Assembly: GCA_036496285.1 (NCBI GenBank)
Contig: DASXLI010000024.1
Span: 37,125-101,124 of the forward strand
Direction: 5' to 3'
From: Candidatus Binatia bacterium
Lineage (GTDB): Bacteria; Desulfobacterota; Binatia; UTPRO1
Length of the DNA: 64,000 nt
Below are positions 7,575-57,066 of the stretch, one piece after another. How positions within the stretch are numbered: the stretch's first letter is position 1; the number at the start of each line of letters is the position of its first letter. The position numbers and the translations under genes were made by a program. The notes under the pieces were generated by a model. The model made no database searches. It worked only from the letters and a program-made list of their open reading frames with translations, and was not told the DNA's origin.

Positions 7575-7668
7575 GCGTCGGAAATACCGAACGCTGTTCG
7601 AGAAGGGAAGGCGCGATCCATCAGATCCATCGCGGCGCGAGGCGTGAGCCGCGGCCGTGAAGCGGCCG

Positions 7669-7947: not shown

Positions 7948-7948
7948 G

Positions 7949-11652: not shown

Positions 11653-11855
11653 TTCTCGCCGCTCTCGTCCGGGCCCGACTCGTCGTCGCTGTCGCCGAGC
11701 TCGTCCCCCGCGACCCGGTAGCGCTCGGTGGCCCAGGCGCCCAGGTCGATCAGCCGGCAGCGCTCGCCGCAGAAGGGCCGGGAGGGGTTGTCCGCCCAGG
11801 CGACGGGCTGGTGGCAGGTCGGACAGCGCGGCGCGAACGTCACTACGCCGAGCAT
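11649..11855 (-). CDS. yacG: DNA gyrase inhibitor YacG (zinc ribbon)
   Basis: It reads [44 protein letters not shown] with an acidic tail. Its stop overlaps the lpxA start (ATGA). Confidence 0.75.
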
Positions 11856-11940
11856 AGGACAGGCCCGTCCGGGGTCGCAACGGCCGGCGCGCCGCACGCC
11901 GCGATCACGCGAGCGCGTCGGCCTGGCCGGCAGCCGTGGC

Positions 11941-20492: not shown

Positions 20493-20680
20493 CGCGTCTC
20501 TCCTCGCGCGTTTCCGCGGAATCTGCCGGCAGAGCGCAAAGGCTTGCGCGCCGGCCGCGCAGGAAAAGTGCAAAGAGCGTTCCGGAGCGGCTGCTGGCGC
20601 GCGAATGCTCACACGCCGTGTCGAGTAGTTGTCCACGACGCGCCACTCGACTAAGCGTCGCGCTGAAGGAGGTTCGCGCG

Positions 20681-21586: not shown

Positions 21587-21867
21587 GCCCCTTCCCCGCC
21601 TCGCCGATCGGTCGGCATGGCGCACATACCGGGAGGCGTGCCGCGCCGCGCCAACATTTTCTGGGGTGCTTTCGAGAAGACAGGACGTACTTGCCTACGA
21701 AAGGGCACACTCCTACACAATCATACCAGTCAGCGTTTCCCGTACCGGAAAGCGTGCGAACCACGTAATGACTTGCTGGCACGACAGAGGAACGGAAGAG
21801 CGCCCGTCAACCCCTTTCCTCGGGCGAGAATCAACGCACCGCAGTCAACCACTGGAGGAAGGGTCAT

Positions 21868-24800: not shown

Positions 24801-25204
24801 CGGGTGTTCAGACGGCGGGCAATCAGTGCGACGGCGCGTCGGGCGATTGCGTTGCTGATGCCGGGACGCCGAGCCCCAATGACCGCATCTGCTCCTCCGG
24901 TCCGCTCGAGAGCTTCTGCGGCCCGGTCGAGACGTTCCGTGGTTGTACGGGCGACAGCGACTGCACGTTCGCGGGCGACACCTGCAGTGTGACGCGCTTC
25001 CGCGATTGCTTCGACAACGGCATCCCCGGCGAGCTGATCACCGCGACCGGCTTGCAGAGCGCGCCGGTGAACGACCAGTCCGATCCGACGCTCGCCGCGC
25101 TCTTCTGCGTCGGGCCGACGAGCTCCGGGTCGATCAACTCGGCCGCGGGTCTCCCAGGTCCGGGACGCCTCGAGCTACCGGGTCACGCCCACGGGCTGCC
25201 GTAA
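21868..25204 (+). CDS. Giant secreted Cys-rich repeat protein (~1112 aa): duplicated N-terminal Cys module, ~350-aa Thr/Ala/Pro low-complexity region, and a C-terminal region with Myxococcus-type cysteine-rich repeats
   Basis: An RBS (GGAGGAAGGG) precedes the signal peptide. Two homologous ~110-aa modules are present ([20 protein letters not shown]... and [20 protein letters not shown]...). [14 protein letters not shown] and many CPGG/CxxC motifs follow after residue ~590. Confidence 0.8.
22560..23615. repeat. About 1 kb of imperfect tandem repeats (ACC/ACG/GCC/GCG/CCG codons) encoding (T/A)(A/T)TP(T/V)... low-complexity sequence
   Basis: The repeated units gcgacgccgaccgtcacc, cgcaccgccacgcc and acggcgacg recur dozens of times. 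The region is in frame within the giant CDS and has no spacer-and-repeat architecture. Confidence 0.85.
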
Positions 25205-26397: not shown

Positions 26398-27210
26398 TCA
26401 GCGGCCGCGGAAGCGCGGCGGCCGCTTCTCGAAGAACGCGCTCACGGCCTCGCCGAGATCCTCGCTCGCGACGAACGCCGCGTTCCAGGCCGCCACGTAG
26501 GCGAGCCCGTCCTCGACACTCTTGCCGGCGCAGTACTCGAGCACGTGCTTCGTGCCGGCGACCGCAAGCGGTGAGTTCGCGGCCATGCGCGCCGCCATGG
26601 CGAGCGCCGCATCGACGACCGCTTGCTGATCGGCGTGGATGCTGTTCACGAGGCCGATCGCGCGGGCGCGTTCGGCGTCGAAGTCGTCGCCGGTGAACGC
26701 GAGCTCGGCGACCTGCCCTTTGCCGATGATGCCCGGCAGGCGCTGCAAGGTGCCGACGTCGGCGACCATGGCCATGCGCGTCTCGCGGATGCTGAAGGTC
26801 GCGGCGGCGGCCGCGAGCCGCACGTCGCAGGCGGTGATCAGATCTATGCCACCCCCCAGGCAGTAGCCGTGGATCGCCGCGATGACCGGCTTCGCGCAGC
26901 GCGCGACCGCGGTGATCGATCCCTGCAGACGGGCGATCGTGTCGAGGAGGCGCCGCCGTCCTGCTACACCCCCGCCGCCCTCGGCGATGCCACCACCCAT
27001 CGACTTGAGGTCGAGGCCGACGGTGAAGTGCGGGCCGCGCGCGGCGAGGACGACGGCGCGCACCGCATCGTCGGCCTGCAGCTCGGCGATCGCCCGCGGC
27101 AGCTCGTCCCAGAATGCCGGGCCCATGGCGTTCCGCCGTTCGGGGCTCGCCATCCAGAGGGTTCCGACGTGCTCGTGCCGATCGATCGCGAAGACTTCGT
27201 AGGCGGCCAT
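26398..27210 (-). CDS. Enoyl-CoA hydratase/isomerase (crotonase) family protein
   Basis: It begins MAAYEVFAIDRHEHVGTLWMASPERRNAM and has an oxyanion-hole region (GYCLGGGIDLITACD). Confidence 0.8.
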   Translation of the reverse strand: MAAYEVFAIDRHEHVGTLWMASPERRNAMGPAFWDELPRAIAELQADDAVRAVVLAARGPHFTVGLDLKSMGGGIAEGGGGVAGRRRLLDTIARLQGSITAVARCAKPVIAAIHGYCLGGGIDLITACDVRLAAAAATFSIRETRMAMVADVGTLQRLPGIIGKGQVAELAFTGDDFDAERARAIGLVNSIHADQQAVVDAALAMAARMAANSPLAVAGTKHVLEYCAGKSVEDGLAYVAAWNAAFVASEDLGEAVSAFFEKRPPRFRGR

Positions 27211-27297
27211 GGCGCCGCCATATGCCAGCCCCGCCGCCCCGGCAAGCGCGGCGGCCGCAGGTTGGACAGGCGCCACCCGCCCCGCTAGGAACGGGGC

Positions 27298-27495
27298 GTG
27301 TCGGTCAACACGGCGCACAAGATCCTGATCGCCACCGCCATCGGCTTCTTCCTCATGTACGCCCTCTGGGAGCTGGCCGACTACACCCAGTCCGGCGAGG
27401 CGACCGCGCTCGTCTGGAGCCTCGCGGCCGGCACCGGTGCGATCGGGCTCGGCCTCTACCTGCGGCGCTTCATCCGCTCGCTCGGAACTCCGTGA
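27298..27495 (+). CDS. Small 2-TM membrane protein (65 aa), hypothetical
   Basis: It has a GTG start with an AGGAA upstream and two hydrophobic helices. Its TGA stop overlaps the GTG start of the next gene (GTGA). Confidence 0.4.
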   Translation: MSVNTAHKILIATAIGFFLMYALWELADYTQSGEATALVWSLAAGTGAIGLGLYLRRFIRSLGTP

Positions 27496-28175
27496 CCGCG
27501 ATCGTCCACGACATCGACCCGTCGCGCGTCCAGGCAGCGGTTTTCGACCTTGGCGGCGTCTTCCTCGCCGGCGGCGTCGAGTCGGTGCGGGGCTTCGGCG
27601 CGCGTCACGGCCTGTCGCCGGAGACGTGGGATGCGATCCGCCTCGAGCTCTTCCACGAGGCGGGCATCTGGTCGGCGTGCGAGCGCGGCGAGGTGACGCT
27701 CGAGCGTTTCGTCGCCCGCCTGCGCGAGCTGGTGAACGAGGCCGGCGGCTACGTGTCGCGCGGCGATGCCGAGAACTTCATGGGTGCGATGAGCGATCAG
27801 GAGGCCGGGCAGCGCCTGCGCCGCGAGATCGTCGACGCCGCGGGTCGCGTGCACGCCGTCATGCCGACGGCCCTCCTCACCAACAACATCCTGGAGTGGC
27901 GCCAGGGCTGGCGCGGACTGCTCGATCTCGCGACGCTCTTCGACGTCGTGATCGACTCGTCCGAGGTCGGCATCCGCAAGCCCGAGCCCGCGATCTACGA
28001 GCTCACCCGCACCAAGCTCGACCTGCCGCACGAGGCGATCTTCTTCCTCGACGATCTCGGCGTGAACCTGAAGCCGGCGCGCGCGCTCGGCTGGCAGACC
28101 CTACGCTACGACGACACGGAGCGCGTCCTCGCCGTGCTCGAGGCGCTCGTCGCGAGCCGTCCACCCCGCCCCTAG
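27492..28175 (+). CDS. HAD-superfamily hydrolase
   Basis: It has motif I (FDLGGVF), motif II (LLTNN) and motif IV (FFLDDLGVN). It is 227 aa. Confidence 0.7.
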   Translation: MTAIVHDIDPSRVQAAVFDLGGVFLAGGVESVRGFGARHGLSPETWDAIRLELFHEAGIWSACERGEVTLERFVARLRELVNEAGGYVSRGDAENFMGAMSDQEAGQRLRREIVDAAGRVHAVMPTALLTNNILEWRQGWRGLLDLATLFDVVIDSSEVGIRKPEPAIYELTRTKLDLPHEAIFFLDDLGVNLKPARALGWQTLRYDDTERVLAVLEALVASRPPRP

Positions 28176-28191
28176 CGCCGCGCCGCCCCGT

Positions 28192-29541
28192 TCAGGGCCG
28201 GTGCGCGGCGACGAAGGCGGCGATGAACTCGGCGCCCTTCGGGCTCGGGTGGTAGTGGTCCGTGAAGAAGTAGCTCGCCTTGTCCGGCAGCGACTCGAAC
28301 GCGGCCGCCAGATCGATCAGCGCGACGCCCTGCTCCGTCGCGAGCGCGCGCAGCAGCTCGTTGTTGTGGTCGAGCAACACCTTCCGGCGGCCGTCCATGT
28401 CGTGCATGAAGGTGACGATCACGGGCGTCACGCCCTTCGAGCGGCTGATCAGGCAGAGCGTCCGCACGTTCTCGGCGTAGGCGTCGCCGATCGTCGCGAG
28501 CAGCTGCCGCAGCTCGTCGCCGGGGTGGGCCTCCGGCGTCCACGTCGCGGCGGTCTCCTCGACCGGCGGCGGCCGCATCACCGCCGCGAGCGGCGGGACG
28601 TACTGCTGTACGACGTAGAAGAGGAGGCTCCGCGCGTACGCATTCTGTCCGCGCGTCGCCGACGCCCAGAACTCCGCCACGGAGCCGCTGAACAGGATGT
28701 CGTCGGAGATCAGCAAGCGGTCGCGTCCGGTACCGAACAGGTCGTTCGGGCCGAGGTAGAGGACGACCATCGTCGGCTTGTGCGGCAGCACGCGCACGTA
28801 GAAGCGGATCAAGGTCTGGAGCGAGGTGTAGCCGTTGTTGCCCGCGTTCACGACGTCGAGGGCCGGGTCGGGTCGTTGCGCCCGCAGCTTCTCCTCGAGG
28901 AGGTGCGGCCACGTCTGGTCGTCGTTCAGGCCGTAGCCGAAGACGGACGACTCGCCGAGCGTGAAGATGCGCGGGCCGGCGTCGTCCTCCCACCGCCCGC
29001 GCAGATGCGTACGGAAGCCGAAACCGTCGGTCGTGTACGTCGCGCCGGCGTTCGTCCAGGTGTTGCTCGGCTTCGCCTCGAACCCGAGGAGGATCGAGCG
29101 CTCGTGTCCCCACGCGGCGTACTCGGCGAACGCGTCCTGCGTCCGCAGGCGTTGCGTCAGCACCGTTTCGGCCAGCACGGCGGCGATGACGAGACCGCCG
29201 AGCGAGAGAAGAAACGCGGCGGCGGGACCGGCGCCCCCGGCCCGCCGGCACGCCCACGCGACGACCAGGGGCACGAACAGCAAGCTCGCGCCGCAGACCA
29301 GCAGGAAGCGCGCGTAGCGCGCGCTGTACGTCAACACCGCGGCATCGGGCGAGCGGTGGAAGACGAGGGGCAGGAGCAGCAGCCCGAGCGGCACGGCACA
29401 CAGCAGGTATCCCCGGGCGAACGGCCGCATGAGTGATGCGGTCAGGGAGCCGAGCGCGGGACGCAGTTCGCCGTAATAGGCATGAGGACGCCATACGGAA
29501 GCCCAGGGGGTCTCGGCAAGGACCGGTAGGACATGCGACAT
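28192..29541 (-). CDS. Membrane-anchored SGNH/GDSL hydrolase (putative polysaccharide or lipid O-acyl esterase or transferase)
   Basis: An N-terminal multi-TM region is followed by block I (FTLGESSVFGYG), block III (NAGNNGYTS) and block V (DHYHPSPKGAEFIA). The start is MSHVLPV at 29541. Confidence 0.7.
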   Translation of the reverse strand: MSHVLPVLAETPWASVWRPHAYYGELRPALGSLTASLMRPFARGYLLCAVPLGLLLLPLVFHRSPDAAVLTYSARYARFLLVCGASLLFVPLVVAWACRRAGGAGPAAAFLLSLGGLVIAAVLAETVLTQRLRTQDAFAEYAAWGHERSILLGFEAKPSNTWTNAGATYTTDGFGFRTHLRGRWEDDAGPRIFTLGESSVFGYGLNDDQTWPHLLEEKLRAQRPDPALDVVNAGNNGYTSLQTLIRFYVRVLPHKPTMVVLYLGPNDLFGTGRDRLLISDDILFSGSVAEFWASATRGQNAYARSLLFYVVQQYVPPLAAVMRPPPVEETAATWTPEAHPGDELRQLLATIGDAYAENVRTLCLISRSKGVTPVIVTFMHDMDGRRKVLLDHNNELLRALATEQGVALIDLAAAFESLPDKASYFFTDHYHPSPKGAEFIAAFVAAHRP

Positions 29542-29596
29542 TGACGCCCCCACCCCGTTTCCTTCATCATCGTCACCTGCCGTAGCGCGCCGGACC

Positions 29597-30628
29597 ATGT
29601 CGACCGAACAGCCCCTGCGAATCGCGGTGATAGGTGCAGGACGCTGGGGCCCGAATCACGTTCGAAACTTCCACGAGATCGGCGCAACCGTCGTCGGGGT
29701 CGCCGACCTCGAGCAGTCGCGCCTGGCCGCATTGCGTCAACGGTATCCGGGCCTCGTCGTCAGCACGGACTACCGCGACTTCCTCGCGCGCGACGACGTC
29801 GACGCGGTCGTCGTCGCGACGCCCGTCACCACGCATGCGCGGATCGTCGCCGACGCCCTCGCCGCCGGCAAGGACGTACTCGCCGAGAAGCCGCTCGCCG
29901 CGACGACCGCTGAGTGCGTCGAGCTCGCGGACGTCGCCCGCGCACACGGCCGCCTGCTCATGACCGGACATGTGTTTCTCTTCAACTCCGGCATTTTGAA
30001 GCTGAAGGAGCTTCTGCAGTACGGCGAGCTCGGCGACGTCTACTATTTTCACATCACCCGCACGAACCTCGGCCCCATCCGCCAAGACACCAACGCCGTC
30101 GGTGATCTGGCGAGCCACGACATCGCGACGCTCAACTTCCTGATCGGCGCGAGCCCGACGCACGTGAGCGGCACCGGGATGAGCTACCTGCAGGAAGGGC
30201 GCGAGGACGTGGCCTTCGTCACGCTGTTCTACCCGAACCGGACGATTGCCAGCCTCCACATCAGCTGGCTCGATCCCATGAAGGTGCGCCGCATCACCGC
30301 CGTGGGATCCAAGAAGATGGCGATCTGGGACGATCTCTCGCAACAGGGCCCTGTCGCCATCTACTCGAAGCGAATCGTACGTGAGCCGGTCGATCCCAGC
30401 ATGCCCGACTACGGGGACTTCCAGCTTCTCGTGCGCGAGGGGGAGATCAACATTCCCCTCGTCCATCAGATCGAGCCCCTCCGGGCGCAGGCGCAGTACT
30501 TCATCCAGGCTGTTCGGCAGCGGGCGCTGCGGGTCTGCGATGCGCCCTTCGCCACCGAGGTCGTGCGCATCGTCGAATGCATCAACGAGTCGATCGTTCA
30601 GGGGGGGAGCCGCGTCGCCGTTTCGTGA
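29597..30628 (+). CDS. Gfo/Idh/MocA family NAD-dependent oxidoreductase (WbpB/WlbA-like sugar 3-dehydrogenase)
   Basis: It has an N-terminal Rossmann fold (LRIAVIGAGRWGPNHVRN) and the EKP motif (AEKPLA). Confidence 0.8.
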   Translation: MSTEQPLRIAVIGAGRWGPNHVRNFHEIGATVVGVADLEQSRLAALRQRYPGLVVSTDYRDFLARDDVDAVVVATPVTTHARIVADALAAGKDVLAEKPLAATTAECVELADVARAHGRLLMTGHVFLFNSGILKLKELLQYGELGDVYYFHITRTNLGPIRQDTNAVGDLASHDIATLNFLIGASPTHVSGTGMSYLQEGREDVAFVTLFYPNRTIASLHISWLDPMKVRRITAVGSKKMAIWDDLSQQGPVAIYSKRIVREPVDPSMPDYGDFQLLVREGEINIPLVHQIEPLRAQAQYFIQAVRQRALRVCDAPFATEVVRIVECINESIVQGGSRVAVS

Positions 30629-30649
30629 GCGACCGGCGGAGCAGCCGAC

Positions 30650-31639
30650 ATGACGCCGCTCCGGCTCCTCGTCACCAGCGCTGGCTCCGCTCCCGCCGTC
30701 GCGGTGATCAAGGCACTTCGACAGCAGTCCCGCTATTCCGTGGAGATTGGCACCGTCGACGCACAGGAGCGCTCCGTGGGGAAGCTGCTCGCCGACCGGT
30801 TCGATCTGGTCCCCCACGCGGCCGACCCGACCTTCGTCCCGCACCTGATGGATCTCTGCGTCACTCACGGCGTGCAATACGTCTTCCCGATCATCGACGA
30901 GGAATTGCCCGTGTGGGCCGCCGCCCGGGACCGCTTCGCCGCTGCCGGAGTCACCGTCTTCGCCAATCCGGTCCAGTGTGTCGAGCTCGCCAACGACAAG
31001 CTGAGCACGGCGAGCCACTGCCTCGCCCACGGCATACCCCACCCGCGCTGCTACGACTCCGCGGAAGCACGCGCACTCTCGTTCGAGGCGTTTCCGCTGT
31101 TCGCCAAGCCACGCTTCGGACGCGGAAGCGTGGGTGCGAAGCGCATCGAGAATCCGGGCGAGCTAAACGATTTTCTCCGGCGCCACCCGGACGGGCTGGT
31201 GCAGGAGCTGCTCGCTGGTGTCGAGTTGACCGTCGACGTGCTCGTGAGCGCGGAGGGTGAGCTGCTCGCCGCGGTGCCGAAGGAGCGCCTCGAGGTGAAG
31301 GCGGGCATGGCCACGAAGAGCATTACACGCCCGGGTGCGGAGGTGCTGCCGTTGGTCCGCAAGGTGGTCGCGGACTTCGGGATCCGCGGCGCCGCGAACG
31401 TCCAACTCATGGGGACCGGTGGACGCTGGAGCCTCATCGAGGTCAATCCGAAGTTCGCCGCGAGCCTGCCGCTCACCGTGGCCGCGGGCGTCAACTTGCC
31501 CTTGCATCTCCTCGAGCTGGCACGCGCCGAGTTCGCGCACCCGACACCGCTGCCGTTCACGCAGGATCTGTTGATGCTGCGCCGCTGGGAGGAGCACTTC
31601 GTGCGCGAGGGGCCCCGCTCGTCGGCGGGCGCCGTATGA
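30650..31639 (+). CDS. ATP-grasp domain protein (putative carboxylate-amine ligase acting on a sugar intermediate)
   Basis: It is CPSase-L/PylC-like, with FAKPRFGRGSVGAKRIEN, ELTVDVLV and LIEVNPKFAAS motifs. Confidence 0.7.
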   Translation: MTPLRLLVTSAGSAPAVAVIKALRQQSRYSVEIGTVDAQERSVGKLLADRFDLVPHAADPTFVPHLMDLCVTHGVQYVFPIIDEELPVWAAARDRFAAAGVTVFANPVQCVELANDKLSTASHCLAHGIPHPRCYDSAEARALSFEAFPLFAKPRFGRGSVGAKRIENPGELNDFLRRHPDGLVQELLAGVELTVDVLVSAEGELLAAVPKERLEVKAGMATKSITRPGAEVLPLVRKVVADFGIRGAANVQLMGTGGRWSLIEVNPKFAASLPLTVAAGVNLPLHLLELARAEFAHPTPLPFTQDLLMLRRWEEHFVREGPRSSAGAV

Positions 31640-32634
31640 CCGACCGTCGCATATTGGTGACGGGCGGAGCCGGCTTCATCGGCTCACACATCGTCGAAGA
31701 CCTCCTCTTGCACGGGTACGATGTCACCGTCCTCGACAACCTGAGCAGCGGCCGGCGGGAGAACCTCGCCGCCGTCTCCCGCGACGTACGGTTCGTCGAA
31801 GGCGACCTCGCGGACGGAAACCTCCTTGCCCGTGCGATGCGCGGCCAGCGCTTCGTTTCGCACATGGCGGCGCAGCTCGAGATCATCCGCTGCAGCAAGG
31901 ATCCTCTCGCCGACCTCGACGCCAACACGGTCGCGACCCTGCGCGTCCTGAACGCCGCGGTGGAAGCGGGACTCGACAAGATGGTCAACGCGTCGTCGGC
32001 ATGCGTCTATGGTCAGGCGGTGCACGTACCCGCCTCCGAGGACGGACATCCGAAAAATCCGAACTGGGCGTACGGGGTGAGCAAGCTCGCAGCCGAGCAC
32101 TACTGCCGGCTGTTCCACGAGAGCGGCCGCCTCGCCACGACGAGTCTGCGCTTCGCGATCGTCTACGGACAGCGCGAATGGTGCGGACGCGTGATCACGA
32201 TGATGCTTCGGCGCGCCCTCCGCGGCTTGCCGCCCGTCGTCTTCGGCGCCGGAGACCAGTCACGTGATTTCATCCATGTCGACGACGTGGTCCGCTGTCA
32301 CCGGCTCGCGCTGGAATCGGACGCGGCGAACGGCCTCCCCTTCAACGTCTCGACCGGCATCGGCACCGACGTCTCCACGCTGGCAGGCTTGTGCGCGGAA
32401 GTGACCGGACTCGGGCAGCCTCCGATCTTCGAGGACACGGCGCAAGGCGAGACGTCGCAGGCGATGCCCGACCGAGTTCGCCTGCCACAGGAGCTGCACA
32501 CCATGATCCTGGATCCCACCCGGGCGAATCAGCTGCTCGGCTTCCGAGCGGAGACGCTGCTCCGGACCGGCCTTGCTCGCGAATGGGCGTGGATCCGGAA
32601 ACAACCCGACCGTTGGAACTCGCTCTCGATCTGA
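31636..32634 (+). CDS. NAD-dependent epimerase/dehydratase (extended SDR, UDP-sugar epimerase-like)
   Basis: It has the GGAGFIGSH Rossmann motif and the YGVSK catalytic YxxxK. The ATGA overlap with the upstream gene is present. Confidence 0.85.
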   Translation: MTDRRILVTGGAGFIGSHIVEDLLLHGYDVTVLDNLSSGRRENLAAVSRDVRFVEGDLADGNLLARAMRGQRFVSHMAAQLEIIRCSKDPLADLDANTVATLRVLNAAVEAGLDKMVNASSACVYGQAVHVPASEDGHPKNPNWAYGVSKLAAEHYCRLFHESGRLATTSLRFAIVYGQREWCGRVITMMLRRALRGLPPVVFGAGDQSRDFIHVDDVVRCHRLALESDAANGLPFNVSTGIGTDVSTLAGLCAEVTGLGQPPIFEDTAQGETSQAMPDRVRLPQELHTMILDPTRANQLLGFRAETLLRTGLAREWAWIRKQPDRWNSLSI

Positions 32635-32645
32635 GTGGCGTGCCG

Positions 32646-33428
32646 ATGACCAGCGTACCCCGACCATCCGGGAGCGAGGGCGCGGCACAGCGTGGCGCCG
32701 GGACCTGGACGAACGCACAGCGCGACTACTTCGAGCGGAACCTCGAGGAATACGATCGCGAACGGGCGTTGCGGGCGCGAGCGTACGCGCGAAAGGCGCG
32801 TATGCTCCGCCGTGAGCTCGAGAAGTCGGACGTACACGACGTCCTCGAAGTCGGCGCGGGGAGTGGTCTCGTGACGACGTTCCTGGCCCCCGCGCTGCCG
32901 CGCGTCCGTTATGTCGCCCTCGACTTCGCGACCGCGATGCTCGCGGCTGCACGGAGCCGGGCGGCCACGCCGCGCGTGCACCTGATCGCAACCGATGCCG
33001 GCGCGGCGGGGCTCGCCAGCGACTCCTTCGACGCGATCGTCGGCGTCGACATCGTGCACCACCTGGAGTCTCCGGTGCAGGCAATGCGCGAATGGTGGCG
33101 GCTGGCGCGCCCGGGCGCGCGGCTGGCCGTGCTCGAGACCAACCCGTATCACCCGGTGAATCTCCGCTTCGTCGGCGTCGCACACGAGCTCCGTCTCTTC
33201 CTGAACAGCCCGGCGAACCTCGTCGCCTGGGCGCGCGAGGCCGGGTGGCAGGAGGTCGCCCTCGACGCGACACCGACCTTCACGCCCTCGGGTCCTCCCT
33301 GGCTGGCCCGCGCGCTCGACGCCGTGGATCATCTCGCGGTACGAATGCCGGGCGCACGCTGGCTGGCCGCACTCTGGTTGCTGACCGGACGCAAGCCTCT
33401 CGGGACGGGAACGGCGGGAGCGCCCTGA
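32646..33428 (+). CDS. Class I SAM-dependent methyltransferase
   Basis: Motif I (VLEVGAGSG) and motif II/III (DAIVGVDIVHH) are present. Confidence 0.7.
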   Translation: MTSVPRPSGSEGAAQRGAGTWTNAQRDYFERNLEEYDRERALRARAYARKARMLRRELEKSDVHDVLEVGAGSGLVTTFLAPALPRVRYVALDFATAMLAAARSRAATPRVHLIATDAGAAGLASDSFDAIVGVDIVHHLESPVQAMREWWRLARPGARLAVLETNPYHPVNLRFVGVAHELRLFLNSPANLVAWAREAGWQEVALDATPTFTPSGPPWLARALDAVDHLAVRMPGARWLAALWLLTGRKPLGTGTAGAP

Positions 33429-33432
33429 CGGC

Positions 33433-34152
33433 ATGACGACCAACCGCGACCTCGACCAGATTGCGTCGGAGTATGACTCGCTGAGCGACTTCGACCACCA
33501 CGCGATCGCCCACGAGGCCGATCTGTTCCTCGCAGACTACGTGGATGGGGCTGTGCTCGAGCTCGGCTGCGCTCGAGGCGGGATGACGCGCAAGCTCGCA
33601 CCCATCGTCGATCGCCTGGTCGTCGTCGACGGCTCCGAAACGTACCTTACAGAGCTGCGTCGGGATCTCGGACAGCAGGCGGAGTTCGTCTCGAGTCGAT
33701 TCGAGGACTACGACCCCGCGTCGACGTTCCGCCACGTGCTCGCGGCGCGCATCCTCGAGCACCTGCAGGAGCCCGTCGCCTTCCTGAAGCGCCTGCGCGG
33801 CTGGCTCGAGCCCCACGGGATGCTCCACGTCATCGTCCCCAACGCACGCTCGTTTCACCGCCTGCTCGGTCTGGAGATGGGTTTGATCAAGGACCTCCAC
33901 GAGCTCGGCGAGCGCGACCGCCGGGTCGGCCACGTCCGGGTCTACGATTCGGACATGCTCATGCGCGACCTCGAGAGCGCAGGCTTCCGCGTGACATGGC
34001 GGAGGGACGTGATGTTGAAGCCCCTGTCGAACGCCCAAATGGAGACGTGGGAGCCCGCCATCATCGACGCACTCTTCCGCATGGCGCGCCACTTCCCCGA
34101 TCACGGCAACGAGCTCTACTTCCGATGCGAAGCGGCCAGGGTGCGGCCCTGA
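33433..34152 (+). CDS. Class I SAM-dependent methyltransferase (second copy)
   Basis: It has VLELGCARGGMT and LHVIVPN motifs. It is 239 aa. Confidence 0.7.
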   Translation: MTTNRDLDQIASEYDSLSDFDHHAIAHEADLFLADYVDGAVLELGCARGGMTRKLAPIVDRLVVVDGSETYLTELRRDLGQQAEFVSSRFEDYDPASTFRHVLAARILEHLQEPVAFLKRLRGWLEPHGMLHVIVPNARSFHRLLGLEMGLIKDLHELGERDRRVGHVRVYDSDMLMRDLESAGFRVTWRRDVMLKPLSNAQMETWEPAIIDALFRMARHFPDHGNELYFRCEAARVRP

Positions 34153-34153
34153 C

Positions 34154-34882
34154 GTGGCGGCACCCTCGCCCCCGCTTCTCGTCGTCACGTTTTGCTACAA
34201 TGAGCGCATCAAGATTGCTTCGACGCTCGAGCGATTCTGCGGCCACCCGCAGTGGGACGTGTGGGTCATGGATGACGGCTCGACCGACGGCTCAACCGAC
34301 ACGCTCGAGCAGACGCACGGCGTGCGCATTATCCGACACGACCGCAACCGCGGCGCCGGCGCAGCTGTGCGGACCGTCTTCGAGGAGTTCGTGCGCTCCC
34401 CCTATCAGGTGGTCGTCCTCGTCGCCGGCAACGACAAGGACCGGCCAGAAGACGTCATGCGCGCCGCAACGCCGGTCCTCACCGGAGAACGCGACGTCGT
34501 GCAGGGCTCGCGTTACCTTCCCGGAGGCGAGATCGCCAACATTCCCGTCTATCGCCAACTCGCGACGCGCTACGTTCACCCGATGATCTTCAACGTCGTC
34601 TCCGGACTCCGCATGACCGACACGACGAACGGGTTTCGCGCGATTCATCGCCGTGTGCTGGAAGATCCCCGCCTCGACCTCTCGTCTCCGAGGCTCGATC
34701 AGTACGACCTCGAGCCCTTCTTCCTCCTGAAGACCGCCCGCCTCGGCTATCGCCTCGCCGAGGTCCCGGTGCGAAAGATCTATCCGAGGGGTAATCTCAG
34801 CTATACGAAGATGGCTCCGGTAACTGGCTGGTGGAGCATTCTGAGGCCGCTCATCTATTGCGGCCTGGGCATCTGGAAATGA
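34154..34882 (+). CDS. GT2 family glycosyltransferase, DPM1/ArnC/CsbB-like polyprenyl-phosphate sugar synthase
   Basis: It has VVTFCYNE, VWVMDDGSTDGS and GSRY motifs, a C-terminal hydrophobic segment, and a GTG start. Confidence 0.8.
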   Translation: MAAPSPPLLVVTFCYNERIKIASTLERFCGHPQWDVWVMDDGSTDGSTDTLEQTHGVRIIRHDRNRGAGAAVRTVFEEFVRSPYQVVVLVAGNDKDRPEDVMRAATPVLTGERDVVQGSRYLPGGEIANIPVYRQLATRYVHPMIFNVVSGLRMTDTTNGFRAIHRRVLEDPRLDLSSPRLDQYDLEPFFLLKTARLGYRLAEVPVRKIYPRGNLSYTKMAPVTGWWSILRPLIYCGLGIWK

Positions 34883-35997
34883 ACGACACCGGCTACATTC
34901 CGCTCGTCGATCTCACGCGTCAGTATCGCGAGCATCGGACTGAGCTCGATGCCGCACTGACGGGCGTCCTCGAAGCCGCCACCTTCATCAACGGACCCGA
35001 CGTCACGGCGTTCGAGGCTGAGTTCGCCACCTTCTGCCAGGCACGCCATTGCGTCGGCGTATCGTCGGGGCTCGAGGCACTGCGTCTCATTCTCGCCGCA
35101 CTGAGCATCGGACAGGGCGACGAGGTCATCCTTCCGGCCAATACGTTCGTTGCGACGGCCCTGGCAGTAAGCGCAGTCGGCGCAACCCCCGTCCTCGTGG
35201 ACTGCGACCCCGTGACGGCCAACCTCACCGCGGAGCTCGTGGCCGAGGCGATCACGCCTCGGACGAAGGCGATCATCCCCGTGCATCTCTACGGCCAACC
35301 GGTCGACCTCGATCCTCTGCACGCCCTCGCCCGGGCTCACGGCATTCCCTTGATCGAGGATGCGGCGCAGGCGCACGGGGCGGCATATCGTGGACGGCGC
35401 TGTGGCAGTCTCGGCCTCGCAGCGGGCTTCAGCTTCTACCCCACGAAGAACCTCGGCGCGTTCGGGGACGGAGGGGCCGTCGTCACCAGCGACGACCGGA
35501 TCGCAGACTTCGTTCGCCAGGCGCGCGACTATGGGCAGCAGCGCAAGTACGAGCATGTCGTCAAGGGAGGCAACGCTCGGCTCGACAGCATGCAAGCCGC
35601 GATACTGCGGGTGAAGCTACGTCATCTCGACGGCTGGAACGCCGCGCGGCGGCGGGCCGCGGCCGCGTACGAAGCGCACCTGGCCGGTCTCCCAGGCGTC
35701 CACCTGCCCACGATGCGACCGGACGTCGAACCCGTCTGGCACCTCTACGTGATCCAGGTGAAGGATCGTGACGCCCTCGTCTCGACGTTACATGCCGCGG
35801 GCGTTGGCGCGGGTATCCACTATCCTGTTCCGATCCATCTCCAACCCGCCTACGCGGACCTTGGTCATTCGGCGGGCGATTTCCCGCACGCCGAGGAGCG
35901 CGCCAAGAGAATCGCGAGCCTGCCTCTGTTCCCCGAGATCCGCGAAGACGAGATCGAGCGTGTCTCGGCCGTTGTCCGACGCTTCGTCGCCGGCTGA
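34879..35997 (+). CDS. DegT/DnrJ/EryC1/StrS family PLP-dependent sugar aminotransferase (WbpE/ArnB-like)
   Basis: It begins MNDTGYIPLVDLTRQYREH and has the PLP Lys region (SFYPTKNLGAFGDGG). The ATGA overlap is present. Confidence 0.85.
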   Translation: MNDTGYIPLVDLTRQYREHRTELDAALTGVLEAATFINGPDVTAFEAEFATFCQARHCVGVSSGLEALRLILAALSIGQGDEVILPANTFVATALAVSAVGATPVLVDCDPVTANLTAELVAEAITPRTKAIIPVHLYGQPVDLDPLHALARAHGIPLIEDAAQAHGAAYRGRRCGSLGLAAGFSFYPTKNLGAFGDGGAVVTSDDRIADFVRQARDYGQQRKYEHVVKGGNARLDSMQAAILRVKLRHLDGWNAARRRAAAAYEAHLAGLPGVHLPTMRPDVEPVWHLYVIQVKDRDALVSTLHAAGVGAGIHYPVPIHLQPAYADLGHSAGDFPHAEERAKRIASLPLFPEIREDEIERVSAVVRRFVAG

Positions 35998-36010
35998 TCG
36001 GCATCTGCTG

Positions 36011-38353
36011 GTGACTTCTGATCGCAGGCGAGCGCGGCCGCCCGGAATCAACTGGGCTTCACTCGCCCTCGCATGTTGCGTCTTCCTCGCGGCTGCGCTC
36101 GTGATGTTCGGCGACGTCCTCCTGGCCGGCAACTCCCGAATCCTCTCGATCCCGAACGAGGACATCACGCGTCCGCTCTTCTACTCCCTGCCGTTCGGAT
36201 TCGGGGAGCTCAGAAAAGGACACCTCGTCCTCTGGAATCCCTACAACTACGCCGGGCTGCCGTTCCTCGGAGCCTTCGGCCACGCACTCCTCTATCCACC
36301 GCATTGGCTGCACATGTTCCTCGCTCCCGCGCTCGGCATCGACGTCGAGATTGCGCTGCATCTGTTCCTGGCGGGCGTCTTCGTCTACCTCTGGACCTCG
36401 CACCGTCGCCTGCATCCCGCGGCGTGCATCCTGGCGGGGCTGGTCTTCATGTTCTCGGGCGCGGTGTTTCTCCAGATCTACCGCGGCCATCTGCACTGCA
36501 TCATCTCGCTGACGTGGGCCCCGCTCATCATGCTGGCCATCGACGGAGTGCTCGACGGTACGCCCCGGCCGTCCCCCCGCGTGTGGACGATGATCGGCAT
36601 GGTGGCCGTCGCCATGCAGATACTCTCCGGACACGTTCAGTACACGTTTTACACAGCCATCATCGCCGGCATCTATGCGCTGCTCCGCTGGCTGACGGCG
36701 AGCCGACGGCTGCGTGACGTCCTATGCCTGGCGATGATCTATGCAGGAGGCGCGAGCCTGGCGGCCGTGCAGCTCTTCACCGGACTGCAGGCGGCCTCGG
36801 AAGGCTATCGCACGAGCATCAGCTACGACGTTGCTGCGTCGTTCGCCTTCCCACCCGAAAACGTCCTCACCCTGATCTTTCCCGGCTTCTTCGGCGACAT
36901 GGTCTCCACGCCCTATTGGGGTCGATGGACGCTCACGGAGATGTCGCTGTTCATGGGCGTCTGCCCGTTCGTGATCGCTGTATGCGCGCTCGTACACGGC
37001 GCCAAGGGCGTGCGGCGCTTCAGCCTCCTCATGGCGGTGATCGTTCTCGTTCTCGCCTTCGGCGACTACACCCCGCTCTTCCGCCTCTTGTACGATCACG
37101 TCCCGGGCTTTCAGAACTTCCGCGGGACGACGAAGTTCACGTTCCTCGCGCTCTTGTTCCTCTCGATGCTCGTAGCGGTGGGGTTCGACTACCTGCTGCG
37201 GTCGCGCGTTCCCCGGTGGCTCGCCGTGAGCGCGTTCCTCACTAGCGCCTTGTTGACCGCGGGTGGCCTGGCGCTGGCGTCCGATTGCCGGTCGGGAGGA
37301 CGCGACATCTGGACTCCGACCCTTTCGAGGATGTCCTTCCTCGCGGAGGCCTACCAAAGCTTCATCGTCGAGCGTGCCACCGGGTCGCTCGCGGCGTGTC
37401 AGAACGCTTCGCGATCGTTGTGGATCACCGCCGGAACGTTGGCCGTGTTCGGCGCGCTGTCAGTGGCGGCACGTCGTTGGCACCGCCTCGTCTACGTCAT
37501 CGGGTTGGTCGGTGTCATCGAGCTCATGGCGTATGCCCGATATACGCGGCCGACATTCGATCCGACACCGCTCGCCGAACGCAGTGTGACCTTGCGCCGG
37601 CTACTCGATGAGCGGGATGCCGGCGACGCGCGAATCCTGAGCTACGACCCGTACTCGTACATCGCGATGGGCGCGCGCGCATACGATCTGTGGGGGGCCG
37701 AACCCGCCCTGCTCGGTCGCTACGCGCGCTTCGTCGCCCTCACGCAGCGATGGCCGACGGATGCGATCCTCGTGACCTCGGGCATGCGCACGCCTACCCC
37801 GCTGCTCGGAATGTTGCGTCTTCGATACTTGCTCCGGATGAACGCCGAGCAGATGACGCTGCTACCGACCAACCTGCCGCAGCTTCCGCGGGCCGCCCTC
37901 ATCTCCAATTGGAACGTGCTGCCGGATTCCGATCACGTCCTCGCGGCTCTTCAGGACACGACTTTCGATCCAACGCGGATCGCTCTCCTGGAACACGATC
38001 CGGGACTCACTCCGAGCGGATCCGAAGAGCCTGGACAGATCTCCATCCATGACCTCTCGACGGAGGAGATCGACATTACGGTCGACGCGCCACAACCGTC
38101 GATCCTGGTCATCAGCGACAACTACAGTGCAAGCTGGAAGGCTGCGCCTCTCGACCCGGGAGACACGCGCTCATACGTCGTCGAGCCCGCGGACTATCTG
38201 CTACGCGCGATTCCCTTGCCGGCCGGACATCATCACATCCGTCTCGAATACCGACCGTCGGCGCTGATCCTCGGGACGTGGGTAACGGTCTCGACGATCG
38301 CGGCGTGCCTGGTGGTTCTGGCGTTGGAATGGCGGCGCGTGCGCAAGCGGTGA
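36011..38353 (+). CDS. GT-C fold polytopic membrane glycosyltransferase, YfhO family-like (~780 aa)
   Basis: It has at least 12 TM helices, an LVLWNPYNYAGLPFLG motif in the first periplasmic loop, a large C-terminal soluble domain and a final TM. The probable GTG start is 14 nt after the aminotransferase stop. Confidence 0.7.
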   Translation: MTSDRRRARPPGINWASLALACCVFLAAALVMFGDVLLAGNSRILSIPNEDITRPLFYSLPFGFGELRKGHLVLWNPYNYAGLPFLGAFGHALLYPPHWLHMFLAPALGIDVEIALHLFLAGVFVYLWTSHRRLHPAACILAGLVFMFSGAVFLQIYRGHLHCIISLTWAPLIMLAIDGVLDGTPRPSPRVWTMIGMVAVAMQILSGHVQYTFYTAIIAGIYALLRWLTASRRLRDVLCLAMIYAGGASLAAVQLFTGLQAASEGYRTSISYDVAASFAFPPENVLTLIFPGFFGDMVSTPYWGRWTLTEMSLFMGVCPFVIAVCALVHGAKGVRRFSLLMAVIVLVLAFGDYTPLFRLLYDHVPGFQNFRGTTKFTFLALLFLSMLVAVGFDYLLRSRVPRWLAVSAFLTSALLTAGGLALASDCRSGGRDIWTPTLSRMSFLAEAYQSFIVERATGSLAACQNASRSLWITAGTLAVFGALSVAARRWHRLVYVIGLVGVIELMAYARYTRPTFDPTPLAERSVTLRRLLDERDAGDARILSYDPYSYIAMGARAYDLWGAEPALLGRYARFVALTQRWPTDAILVTSGMRTPTPLLGMLRLRYLLRMNAEQMTLLPTNLPQLPRAALISNWNVLPDSDHVLAALQDTTFDPTRIALLEHDPGLTPSGSEEPGQISIHDLSTEEIDITVDAPQPSILVISDNYSASWKAAPLDPGDTRSYVVEPADYLLRAIPLPAGHHHIRLEYRPSALILGTWVTVSTIAACLVVLALEWRRVRKR

Positions 38354-38378
38354 ACACGCCCCGCGAGTCTTGGGAAGA

Positions 38379-38921
38379 TCAGGCGCGCTCGCCCGAAAGG
38401 GCGGCGACCGACGTGAGGAACGCCCCCATTCCGGCTGCGATCCTGTACCATTGCCAGGCGCTCCATCGGACGAGCTCGGCAGGCACCTGGGCGACGTCGA
38501 TCGTCCCGGCAGCAAATCGCGCGTTCACCTCGCGGAAGTACGCCGGGTACAGCGCCAACACCGCGACTGCCAACAACATGGAGCACGCGAGCCAACCGAT
38601 CCCGGCGCGTCGCCGCAGCGCGTGCAGCAGGGTCGCCAGCACGGCGAGCGTCATGGCAGCGATTTCGAGCGGACCGTAGAACGCGACGAGCCGCGGCTCG
38701 TTCTCAGCGAACCAGCGCAGGAAGTCCGCCGGCGGCAGCGACCGCCAGTACGGCACGAGCACCATCTGCTCGGCGAGCATCGCGCCGGCGGAGATGCCGA
38801 GCACGGCCGTCGCGACGGCCGTCAATTGATTTCGCCCCCGCGCGGCTGGCGCCGCGCGATGGGCGTCGCCACCCGGAGTGAATCCGGGTGGCTCCCAACT
38901 CACCACGGGCCCCTCGTCCAT
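38379..38921 (-). CDS. Small 4-TM membrane protein, DUF1772-like, hypothetical
   Basis: It begins MDEGPVVSWEPP..., has four hydrophobic helices and is about 180 aa. It lies downstream of the ACAD pair. Confidence 0.45.
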   Translation of the reverse strand: MDEGPVVSWEPPGFTPGGDAHRAAPAARGRNQLTAVATAVLGISAGAMLAEQMVLVPYWRSLPPADFLRWFAENEPRLVAFYGPLEIAAMTLAVLATLLHALRRRAGIGWLACSMLLAVAVLALYPAYFREVNARFAAGTIDVAQVPAELVRWSAWQWYRIAAGMGAFLTSVAALSGERA

Positions 38922-38937
38922 CGAGGGCGCGTGGGCG

Positions 38938-39988
38938 TCACCAGCCGGCGGCGGCGAGGGCTTTCTCGAGCTGCGCCTCGGTCGAGCCGTAGAACTGCTC
39001 GAGCGTCTTGGCGCGCTTGAAGTAGAAGTGCAGGTCGAGCTCCCAGGTGAAGCCGATGCCGCCGTGCATCTGGATGGCCTCGCCGCACACGTAGCGCGCG
39101 GCGTCGCCGGCATAGGCCTTGGCGGTGGCGCACGCGAGCTTGGTGTCCTTGTCGCCGGTATCGAGGCACCACGCGGCGCGATAGACAGCCGAGCGCGTCG
39201 ACTCGGTCTTGAGCAGCATGTCGGCCATGCGGTGCTGCAGCGCCTGGAAGGCGCCGATCGGCCGCTTGAAGGCCTGGCGCGTCTGCACATAGCCGAGGGT
39301 GATCTCGAGCGAGCGGCTCATGAGGCCGAGCATCATCGCGCTCGCGCCGACGGCGCCGAGCAGATCGACCTTCTCCAGCAGCTCCGGGCCGCCGATCAGC
39401 GTGCCCTCGTTGTCGAGCTTCACCTCGGCGAAGCGCTGCCCGAGGTCGATCGTCTCGAGCGGCACGACGTCATAGGGGGCGCGGACGAGGACGATGCCTT
39501 GCGGCGTCGTGACCAGGAGCGCGTCGGTACGCGCCGCGAAGGGCACGAAGTACTTCGTGCCGCGCACCCGGCCGTTCTCGAAACGTGCCGGCTGCACGTG
39601 GTTGCCGCTGAACGGTGAGTCCTGCCGCGCGATCGTGACGAGGCTCTTGCCGTGGACGACGTCGGCGAGGAGCGCCGCCTCCTTGCCGGACGCCGCGAGG
39701 AGCGACGCCGCGAGCACGACGTCGAGGAACGGTCCGGGCGCGCACACCCGCCCCATCTCCTCGAGCACGATCGCGAGCTCGATCGTGCCGAGGCCCTGGC
39801 CATTGGCCGTCGCGGGCAGGGTGAGGCCGATGTAGCCCATGTCGGCAAGGCTCCGCCATTGCGCCGCCTCGTAGCCGTCGGGTTGGTGCTCCATGACGTT
39901 GCGCGTCTTCTCGAGCGGCAGCTCGCTGCCGAGGAAGTCGCGAGTGGAGCTCTGCAGCAGCGCCTGCTCCTCGGACAGATCGAACTTC
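38938..39988 (-). CDS. Acyl-CoA dehydrogenase family protein
   Basis: It begins MKFDLSEEQALLQSSTRDFL and has a C-terminal ACAD helical domain (YAGDAARYVCGEAIQMHGGIGFTWE). The ATGA overlap with the upstream ACAD is present, together with an AGGAGG RBS. Confidence 0.8.
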
Positions 39989-55507: not shown

Positions 55508-55514
55508 GGACTGC

Positions 55515-57032: not shown

Positions 57033-57066
57033 CCGGAGCATTGTCCGACACACGTTCCCCATCGCC

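Follow-up and report, generated by a model that had tools for sequence, protein, structure and literature searches.

A putative lipid-carrier-dependent glycosylation system with exchangeable halves, including a YfhO-family GT-C protein, in Candidatus Binatia

Background

In the three-component CsbB/GtcA/YfhO systems that glycosylate teichoic acids in B. subtilis, S. aureus and Listeria, a GT2-family enzyme makes a C55-P-linked sugar, and a YfhO-family GT-C glycosyltransferase transfers this sugar outside the membrane (PMC8035078, PMC5836110). All characterized YfhO systems come from Gram-positive bacteria; a July 2026 preprint offers the prediction, and only the prediction, that a YfhO protein of Bacteroidota is an O-glycosylation transferase or O-oligosaccharyltransferase. 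Here we describe a locus that resembles these systems in its design and is located in a 64,000-nucleotide stretch of DNA (hereafter, the window) from Candidatus Binatia bacterium (contig DASXLI010000024.1, positions 37,125 to 101,124). The phylum Binatota has no cultured members.

Several other described systems share parts of this design. In the ArnB/ArnC/ArnT, FlmF2/NaxD/FlmK and LgmA/B/C pathways, a nucleotide sugar is aminated, N-acylated, loaded on undecaprenyl phosphate (Und-P) by a GT2 enzyme, flipped across the membrane and transferred by a GT-C enzyme. The WbpB/WbpE/WbpD (WlbA/WlbC/WlbB) and GnnA/GnnB systems combine a dehydrogenase with a C3-aminotransferase. The wxc region 3 (wxcK/L/M/N/O) of Xanthomonas campestris, which serves a Gram-negative O-antigen branch made of a 3-acetamido sugar, groups the aminotransferase WxcK and the acetyltransferase WxcM with the GT2 enzyme WxcL and the membrane proteins WxcN and WxcO; a Gtr-like reading of WxcL and WxcN was reportedly put forward by Vorhoelter et al. 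in 2001. WxcO is hypervariable, with identity between strains as low as 26%, and is considered a horizontal acquisition (PMC13133917). In Neisseria, the acetyltransferase domain of PglB leads to diNAcBac, and the ATP-grasp domain of PglB2 leads to the glyceramido sugar GATDH (PMC11130364). Finally, the ATP-dependent amidoligase Cj1438 and the HAD phosphatase Cj1435 of C. jejuni provide a biochemical precedent for a ligase-phosphatase pair (PMC11800397).

Results and discussion

Positions 28192-38353 of the window contain nine intact open reading frames (ORFs), namely, eight on the + strand (29597-38353) and a divergent membrane SGNH gene upstream of them. Pfam backs the family of every one of the nine genes, and the eight + strand genes are spaced successively by 21, -4, 11, 4, 1, -4 and 13 nt, in agreement with the packed, co-directional cassette with a divergent SGNH gene that had been proposed in the initial annotation of this DNA. 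The window also encodes an LpxA-like UDP-GlcNAc O-acyltransferase (10822-11880, - strand) and an outer membrane protein β-barrel (20426-21586, + strand) and, therefore, the host is a diderm with lipid A synthesis. Two proteins of the cassette, the ATP-grasp ligase and GT2, have 100% identical counterparts in a metagenome-assembled genome labelled "Candidatus Binatia bacterium". The reading of the cassette that we favour, with a probability of about 0.6, is a three-component-type system for extracytoplasmic glycosylation via a lipid carrier, composed of two exchangeable halves. The design, that of Arn, Gtr and CsbB-YfhO, is a known one; the novelty lies in the pathway to the donor sugar and in the modular way in which it is combined with several GT-C families.

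The locus in the window is a recombinant, in which the four-gene acetamido-sugar operon of a resident SGNH/GT-C locus has been replaced by a seven-gene module. The GT-C neighbourhoods, which were taken from exact-protein look-ups, include six contigs (L001, L083, L084, L088, L089 and the contig of P0006) that encode GT-C proteins 57-67% identical to that of the window, and in all six a GT2 gene abuts the GT-C gene and is divergent from it. Where the contig continues, GT2 is followed by genes for a Gfo/Idh/MocA-family oxidoreductase, a DegT-family aminotransferase and a hexapeptide acetyltransferase. The combination of dehydrogenase, GT2 and aminotransferase stands beside the GT-C gene on the four contigs with enough flanking sequence (L001, L083, L089 and the P0006 contig); the flank of L084 ends inside the dehydrogenase gene and L088 ends just past GT2, so that only GT2 is visible there. 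The acetyltransferase of L001 is closest to 3-N-acetyltransferases, namely, WlbB (157 bits), WxcM-like enzymes and QdtC. The P0006 contig has the flanking gene order of the window on both sides, ECH-HAD-SGNH and GT-C-small membrane protein-ACAD-ACAD-GST, and L088 shares the downstream flank; between SGNH and GT-C, the P0006 contig carries GT2, Gfo/Idh/MocA, DegT and hexapeptide acetyltransferase genes, in this order, whereas the window carries Gfo/Idh/MocA, ATP-grasp, short-chain dehydrogenase/reductase (SDR), two methyltransferase, GT2 and DegT genes. When L088 is compared with the window, the flank proteins are 91-97% identical, and identity drops to 61% for GT-C, 62% for the small membrane protein and 45% for GT2.

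The biosynthetic proteins of the window are 60-74% identical to those of another locus, L090, and 42-53% identical to those of the close GT-C relatives; for the dehydrogenase, the values are 64-74% with the orthologues in L090-L092 and 42-47% with those beside the closest GT-C relatives. The full biosynthetic block is present, at 45-74% identity, in these three further loci. The module of L090 reads methyltransferase 1, Gfo/Idh/MocA, ATP-grasp, SDR, methyltransferase 2, GT2, HAD, DegT and is followed by a PMT_2-type GT-C gene; a variant in L091 adjoins a gene for a 751-aa protein with sub-threshold YfhO and PTPS_related matches, and L092 holds another variant. Outside the window, the same sugar module is thus paired with PMT_2-type or other GT-C-like proteins, so that three GT-C-like families are involved in all, and pairing with YfhO is not the rule for this module. 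The sugar genes at the site have been swapped wholesale between close relatives, and the locus is hypervariable. The genes that the initial annotation had treated as one cassette do recur together in other genomes, but they do so along two separate lines and not as one fixed nine-gene unit. The G+C content of the cassette (66%) differs too little from that of the window (~69%) for horizontal transfer to be argued from this value alone. In L091, the module is flanked (1-8348 and 18564-19583) by two genes of the sulfatase/phosphodiesterase family (LtaS/EptA-like) and by MBOAT, LPG_synthase_TM (MprF-like) and GDSL genes, a neighbourhood enriched in envelope-remodelling functions.

The GT-C gene (36011-38353, + strand) encodes a 780-aa protein that matches the PF09586 YfhO profile at 35.2 bits (gathering cut-off 28.5, E 6.3e-9) and gives no match to PF13231 or PF02366 even at E up to 10; PF09586 is matched by 31 of the 37 GT-C homologues as well (best E 2.5e-12). 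A profile search of PDB sequences with GT-C returned nothing meaningful. An AlphaFold model of the protein, built from the 37 homologues (predicted local distance difference test score, pLDDT, 91), has about 12-13 transmembrane (TM) helices, a beta-rich extracytoplasmic domain (residues ~540-748) and a final TM helix, and structure comparison of this predicted model finds a GT-C fold in the membrane core, equally similar to AftD, STT3 and PglB and with a likeness to Pmt4, too. The aspartate D51 is invariant in the 37 sequences and lies 9 residues past the predicted TM1 (helix 15-42), where it opens an external helix (52-68); in the model, it is placed at the beginning of the first external loop, the position of the catalytic acid in GT-C enzymes, and is likely to have this function. 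The YfhO-like loop quoted in the initial annotation, LWNPYNYAGLPFLG, corresponds to residues 74-87, of which L74, W75 and N76 are invariant in the 37 homologues, and LWNP (residues 74-77) is the most conserved block in the family. As judged from the profile match, the predicted fold and the invariant D51, the product is a GT-C glycosyltransferase of the YfhO family and not some other type of membrane protein, as had been anticipated for this ~780-aa protein. The gene call of the Joint Genome Institute (JGI), 749 aa from the ATG at 36104, would cut TM1.

More distant GT-C homologues, at <=47% identity, are common in metagenome-assembled genomes of Verrucomicrobiota, Desulfobacterota, Planctomycetota, Myxococcota and other phyla; a metagenome scan with GT-C yielded five loci only. 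Among 80 of these distant homologues, none adjoins the present sugar cassette. One homologue, P0027 (L095, 2276-6355), is 1359 aa long, nearly twice the usual length, and is 48% identical over its GT-C part, with an extra region that has no family match; it was examined as a fusion or a context that might be informative, and nothing informative was found.

The module opens with a gene for a Gfo/Idh/MocA-family NAD-dependent oxidoreductase (29597-30628, + strand; Pfam GFO_IDH_MocA with C-terminal domains), a probable nucleotide-sugar 3-dehydrogenase that would perform the WbpB/WlbA/GnnA-like step; its best NCBIfam family is the archaeal UDP-GlcNAc 3-dehydrogenase, with a sub-threshold score, and its PDB matches are GnnA (7bvj, 55 bits) and WlbA (3q2k, 38 bits). 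The DegT-family, pyridoxal phosphate-dependent aminotransferase (34879-35997, + strand; Pfam DegT 1.5e-120) belongs with the C3 enzymes DesV (409 bits), QdtB (360) and WbpE (300), compared with ~210 bits for the C4 enzymes perosamine synthase and ArnB, which suggests that it acts at C3. The extended SDR (31636-32634, + strand; Pfam Epimerase 6.6e-59) is closest to UDP-hexose 4-epimerases, and its best PDB matches are of the GalE type (4zrm at 170 bits, 6wjb and 2p5u); it is an optional component, present in L090, L093, L094 and L096 and absent from L091 and L092. Two class-I S-adenosylmethionine (SAM) methyltransferases complete this part of the module. The first (32646-33428, + strand; Pfam Methyltransf_11/25/12), the ORF of which opens at 32391 and overlaps the SDR gene so that the ATG at 32646 is the likely start, has orthologues 54-64% identical in L090-L092. 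The second (33433-34152, + strand; Pfam Methyltransf_23, with NodS at 27.7 bits against a cut-off of 24) has orthologues 45-74% identical in the same loci and a PDB match to a hypothetical protein (2p7h, 94 bits). The PDB and NCBIfam matches of both are generic and include no signal of the TylM1/DesVI type of sugar N,N-dimethyltransferases.

The dehydrogenase and C3-aminotransferase pair is thus as in the Wbp, Wlb and Gnn systems, with which the sister loci also share a WlbB-like 3-N-acetyltransferase. Unlike these systems, the window has the ATP-grasp, methyltransferase and epimerase genes in place of an acetyltransferase, its proteins do not reach the equivalog cut-offs, and its product is predicted to go to a lipid-phosphate carrier and GT-C instead of an undecaprenyl diphosphate (Und-PP)-linked repeat unit or lipid A synthesis. 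Neither a hexapeptide 3-N-acetyltransferase, which the sister loci have, among the ORFs and Pfam matches nor a formyltransferase or deformylase domain among the Pfam matches was detected in the window cassette; besides the ATP-grasp protein, only the methyltransferases could modify the free 3-amine.

The ATP-grasp carboxylate-amine ligase (30650-31639, + strand; Pfam PylC-like N-terminal domain and ATPgrasp_Ter) is proposed to N-acylate the 3-amine of the sugar. The implication of the initial annotation that the sugar bears an amide-linked substituent is backed by the comparison of the loci because the ATP-grasp block replaces the WlbB-like 3-N-acetyltransferase at the same site. This exchange is reminiscent of Neisseria PglB and PglB2, where allelic replacement of a hexapeptide N-acetyltransferase with an ATP-grasp domain changes the N-acyl group at one locus; the likeness is one of pathway position, and, in contrast to the window, the Neisseria domains belong to a fusion with a phosphoglycosyltransferase, modify C4 and supply an O-oligosaccharyltransferase pathway that uses Und-PP. 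The Neisseria gene "ORF8", inserted together with pglB2, was considered as a further link to a phosphatase, and the review assigns no function to it.

The family of this ligase is large, with 4,991 clusters at 50% identity for E <= 1e-30. Its gene directly follows the Gfo/Idh/MocA gene in 7 of the 7 contexts examined (40-100% identity), and all six sister ATP-grasp modules examined include a gene for a HAD phosphatase. Natural fusions in the subfamily join it to a HAD phosphatase, a PHP phosphoesterase, a PIG-L sugar de-N-acetylase and an SDR epimerase (P0425, P0415, P0464 and P0345), and tandem ATP-grasp duplications are found in P0337 and P0387. The PIG-L fusion fits acylation of a sugar amine, and the fusions to two unrelated phosphatases suggest, by analogy with Cj1438/Cj1435, that the other substrate of the ligase is phosphorylated. 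In the C. jejuni system, too, a sugar and a phosphorylated partner are joined by ATP-dependent amide formation, after which a HAD enzyme removes the phosphate, a sequence of events that mirrors the ATP-grasp/HAD linkage and fusions; there, however, the sugar gives the carboxylate (C6 of GlcA) and the reaction occurs on the polymer, whereas here the sugar most likely gives the amine, and the window itself has no HAD gene in the cassette. The closest PDB sequence is 2pn1, which has no assigned function (146 bits), and a Foldseek search with the AlphaFold2 model (pLDDT 94.6) ranks the same structure first, followed by biotin carboxylases, PurT and RizA; these nearest structures do not discriminate substrates, and the search was not used to assign one. 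In the distant version of the module in L093, an 89-aa PQ-loop/MtN3 (semiSWEET-like) membrane protein is encoded directly upstream of the dehydrogenase (7643-7912, + strand); it is a possible small flippase or transporter partner, without a counterpart in the window.

The GT2 enzyme (34154-34882, + strand; 242 aa, Pfam Glycos_transf_2) is of the DPM1/PpgS/AglJ type, and we propose, from its sequence relatives, that it is a polyprenyl-phosphate sugar synthase. The top three NCBIfam matches, all of them sub-threshold, are AglJ (62.6 bits, cut-off 325), PpgS (58.9, cut-off 370) and dolichyl-phosphate hexose transferase (44.9, cut-off 375), with 19 bits for ArnC; the only PDB match is the Dol-P-Man synthase of Pyrococcus (5mlz, 44 bits), and the JGI label on its many homologues is dolichol-phosphate mannosyltransferase. 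No TM segment was found in the 242 residues, so that the C-terminal TM helices of the GtrB/ArnC/CsbB subtype are absent; presumably, the protein resembles the short PpgS/DPM1-like subtype.

Together with GT-C, this enzyme would make up the core of a system like CsbB/GtcA/YfhO, with a GT2 that makes the lipid-linked sugar and a YfhO-family protein that transfers it outside the membrane, activities that in the window are predicted from the genes; GT2 and GT-C genes are neighbours, as are the csbB and yfhO genes of B. subtilis. The differences are that the host in the present case is a diderm with lipid A and, presumably, without teichoic acid, that the donor would be a tailored 3-amino sugar made by the products of the operon and not plain GlcNAc, that GT2 lacks the C-terminal TM helices, that there is no GtcA/GtrA flippase gene, and that the YfhO match is weak. 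The pathway logic shared with Arn and CsbB-YfhO, as set out in the initial annotation, agrees with the C3-aminotransferase, the best-matching family of the dehydrogenase, the relatives of GT2, the GT-C fold and the comparison of the loci; a general association with YfhO does not hold.

We propose the following scheme. In the cytoplasm, the Gfo/Idh/MocA dehydrogenase would oxidize C3 of a common nucleotide hexose, probably UDP-GlcNAc, and the DegT enzyme would convert the 3-keto sugar to a 3-amino sugar by transamination. The ATP-grasp ligase would then attach a carboxylic acid, perhaps a hydroxy- or amino-acid that bears a phosphate, to the 3-amine, taking the role that an acetyl-CoA-dependent, WlbB-like N-acetyltransferase has in the sister loci. 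The two SAM methyltransferases would methylate the acyl group or the sugar, and the GalE-like SDR could set the configuration at C4, 4-epimerization being optional. The short DPM1/PpgS-like GT2 would load the finished sugar on polyprenyl phosphate, an unlinked flippase would move the lipid-linked sugar across the membrane, and the YfhO-family GT-C would pass it on to an acceptor outside the cytoplasm, the most plausible one being a surface glycan (lipopolysaccharide (LPS) O-antigen or core) or exopolysaccharide (EPS). The periplasmic SGNH enzyme might add an O-acyl group to the same glycan or remove one from it.

A number of observations weigh against this proposal. The YfhO match of GT-C is confined mainly to the C-terminal 80 residues, with the best stretch at residues 679-759; for the N-terminal core, it is the L091 protein that matches profile positions 96-228, at a sub-threshold 22.9 bits, the significant YfhO stretch of the window protein being C-terminal only. 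A GT2 gene abuts only 8 of the 80 YfhO-like homologues at <=47% identity, the other 72 genomes having no adjacent GT2. Every curated equivalog cut-off is missed, for instance, by the dehydrogenase (167 of 450 bits) and by GT2 (63 of 325 bits), and the matches of the methyltransferases and the ATP-grasp ligase give no clue to their substrates. In the distant ATP-grasp blocks L093, L094 and L096, the adjacent GT2 is a generic one of 333-336 aa, and L096 is an ordinary Wzx/Wzy cluster with no GT-C gene beside the block; the sugar pathway is, therefore, not intrinsically bound to the lipid-phosphate route. No GtrA/GtcA-type flippase is apparent, in that the genes described here take up the whole of the cassette region and the 64-kb window contains no inter-stop ORF of 90-260 aa with >=3 strongly hydrophobic segments; a flippase could be encoded elsewhere in the genome. 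Lacking a flippase gene, the cassette cannot be called self-contained, contrary to the initial description, and the HAD phosphatase of the six sister modules is missing from it as well. If the acyl donor is phosphorylated, the pathway encoded in the window is either incomplete or dependent on an unlinked enzyme. The HAD gene at 27480-28175 was considered for this role and rejected: its product has no similarity to the module HADs, and it is part of the conserved flank, being present also in the syntenic locus of the acetyltransferase type. The substrates, the order of the steps, the carrier lipid, the acyl group and the acceptor all lie beyond family assignment, fold and comparative genomics and are our inference.

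The contexts of the distant blocks also give reason to consider a conventional cytoplasmic route, under which the cassette only supplies an unusual nucleotide sugar, GT2 adds this sugar to an Und-PP-linked repeat of O-antigen or EPS, for example, that of a Wza/Wzc/phosphoglycosyltransferase locus at 54-61 kb, and GT-C has another role as a polymerase, a ligase or an unrelated transferase. A block of DegT, Gfo/Idh/MocA, ATP-grasp, HAD, GT2 and SDR genes is indeed found inside the classical Wzx/Wzy cluster of L096 and beside Wzx and glycosyltransferase genes in L094, each with a generic GT2, and, in the window, a locus for EPS export and priming follows 16 kb downstream. The window GT2 is, however, different from these, being short and having as its only named relatives the Dol-P and polyprenyl-P sugar synthases; its gene adjoins a GT-C-like gene in the close relatives, and in the sister modules, too, the two are linked, with three GT-C families represented, and the operon has no Wzx, Wzy or priming transferase. 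The cytoplasmic route, accordingly, seems to us an improbable explanation. The downstream locus (54281-60694, + strand) is of the exopolysaccharide type, with genes for a Poly_export/SLBB protein resembling Wza, a chain-length-like protein of the GNVR type, an AAA_22 ATPase and a priming phosphoglycosyltransferase (Bac_transf) that also has a CoA_binding_3 domain; its polymer is a candidate acceptor.

Under the lipid-carrier scheme, the acceptors named in the initial annotation, lipid A, LPS or Thr/Ala/Pro-rich proteins, are pure conjecture. To us, a surface polysaccharide or LPS seems a likelier acceptor than lipid A or protein because the drop in identity within flanks of 91-97% resembles antigenic loci, because of the wxc analogue, and because versions of the module are found in Wzx/Wzy clusters. 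By its gene grouping, wxc region 3 appears to be the closest diderm analogue, although it has no ATP-grasp and no methyltransferase genes.

An Arn-like modification of charge, with lipid A or core as the acceptor and with an N-acyl or methyl decoration that is cationic or zwitterionic (for example, a methylated aminoacyl group), would confer resistance to cationic antimicrobials, as do ArnT with L-Ara4N, FlmK with GalN and LgmB with GlcN. The architecture, aminotransferase plus GT2 plus GT-C, is the same, the host makes lipid A, as implied by the LpxA-like gene, the sister module of L091 lies beside MBOAT, LPG_synthase_TM and sulfatase/EptA-like genes that are typical of remodelling of envelope charge, and sister modules employ members of PMT_2, a Pfam family to which ArnT-like enzymes belong. 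Nevertheless, equivalents of the ArnA and ArnD steps are absent, and the extreme allelic divergence between flanks of 91-97% identity is more typical of antigenic surface glycans, so this alternative also appears unlikely. In more general terms, the window differs from Arn and its relatives in that amination would occur at C3 via Gfo/Idh/MocA, and not at C4 via ArnA, that the acyl group would be supplied by an ATP-grasp enzyme and not a formyltransferase, with no deformylase or deacetylase, and that GT-C belongs to another family.

Protein O-glycosylation, in which GT-C would move the sugar to Ser/Thr residues of secreted or membrane proteins in the manner of PMT and the streptococcal GT-C systems, is one to which we assign a similarly low likelihood. 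A 1195-aa protein with a ~330-aa Thr/Ala/Pro repeat is encoded 4.4 kb upstream of position 28192, the streptococcal GT-C systems modify disordered regions rich in Ser/Thr, and the 2026 preprint predicts an O-oligosaccharyltransferase role for YfhO of Bacteroidota; the Thr/Ala/Pro-repeat protein and the likeness of GT-C to Pmt4 therefore keep protein acceptors under consideration. Against this possibility, the repeat protein shows no conserved linkage to the cassette, given that the sole syntenic contig with upstream sequence has no comparably large ORF before its end, and the structural likeness of GT-C to AftD, STT3 and PglB is equally high. The ORF in question (21617-25204, + strand) has no Pfam match and encodes an N-terminal hydrophobic anchor, two Cys-containing repeats, the tandem repeat and a Cys-rich C-terminal region; a peak of AT skew at 22-24 kb arises from the Thr/Ala/Pro repeat.

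Least probable of all is a uronamide scheme of the Cj1437/Cj1438/Cj1435 kind, in which the dehydrogenase and the aminotransferase make a phosphorylated amino-alcohol, the ATP-grasp enzyme couples this compound to a uronic acid at the C6 carboxylate and the phosphate is taken off by a phosphatase, a scheme that has an exact biochemical precedent in C. jejuni and would explain the conserved ATP-grasp/HAD pairing and the phosphatase fusions, but is at odds with the 300-409 bit scores of DegT with NDP-3-keto-sugar aminotransferases, with the canonical trio of dehydrogenase, aminotransferase and 3-N-acetyltransferase in same-locus relatives, with the lack of a UDP-sugar 6-dehydrogenase in the cassette and with the PIG-L fusion, which points to a sugar amine as the nucleophile.

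The SGNH gene encodes a membrane-anchored SGNH/GDSL hydrolase or O-acyl-transferase (ORF 28192-29598, probably, 28192-29430, - strand; Lipase_GDSL_2 1.1e-19 and a weak AlgX match) with three N-terminal TM helices by hydropathy and a catalytic domain that is predicted to be periplasmic. Its homologues are 408-412 aa long and sit at the GT-C loci of two relatives in differing arrangements, the copy in L089 being 49% identical. Because of this length, and because the first ATG of the ORF (29598) would overlap the dehydrogenase start, M57 at 29430 is the more probable start; the SGNH gene and the operon are then separated by a divergent intergenic region of 166 bp (29431-29596). This region contains a sigma-70-like site (29541-29570, + strand), the only one in 27000-39500, which, with 1.0 expected by chance, is suggestive only; the scan for promoters and terminators found no terminator 3' of the operon, and neither count exceeded the shuffle expectation.

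Convergent with the GT-C gene is that of a small membrane protein of ~160-170 aa with about four hydrophobic helices (38379-38900, - strand). The position is kept in two syntenic contigs, with genes of 159-162 aa; the protein has no family match, and no homologue was found beside other GT-C genes. With 62% identity amid neighbours that are 91-97% identical, it diverges together with GT-C and is a possible accessory subunit or flippase candidate, its membership in the system being uncertain. Further upstream in the window, the other "giant" neighbour mentioned in the initial annotation is a 1051-aa protein (17634-20789, - strand) with PD40 beta-propeller repeat and hydrazine-synthase alpha middle domain (HZS_alpha) matches, and the ORF at 16438-17511 (+ strand) encodes an AurF-like di-iron oxygenase (p-aminobenzoate N-oxygenase family) that is apparently unrelated to the cassette.

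Conclusions

The initial annotation considered the combination of these genes undescribed in Gram-negative bacteria. Our search of the literature turned up no account of such a combination; YfhO-family proteins of Gram-negatives as such have already been noticed, although none has been characterized. If the proposed reading is correct, the decoration of surfaces via lipid carriers and GT-C enzymes, as in Arn, Gtr and CsbB-YfhO, would reach a phylum without cultured members and would include a new donor sugar. A broader interpretation, which we put forward tentatively and with considerable doubt, is that Gfo/Idh/MocA, ATP-grasp, phosphatase and DegT make up an undescribed, phylum-spanning pathway, in which the ATP-grasp enzyme attaches a phosphorylated acid, such as phosphoglycerate or phosphoserine, to the amine of a 3-amino sugar; the sugar is then dephosphorylated and methylated and, in Binatia, is delivered via polyprenyl phosphate by interchangeable GT-Cs, YfhO-like or PMT_2, to a strain-variable surface structure; if so, this would be the first YfhO-type system with a defined role in the diderm envelope.

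Assignment of the ligase to this step would give a first function to a large ATP-grasp family (~5,000 clusters), the only solved member of which is functionally unassigned. In joining one sugar module to three GT-C families, nature offers an experiment on the donor tolerance of GT-C enzymes, which could serve glycoengineering. Finally, with flanks that are 91-97% identical, a transferase at 61% and a replaced sugar module, the locus behaves like a serotype island, which points to strong diversifying pressure, from phage or predators, on the envelope of these abundant soil bacteria.

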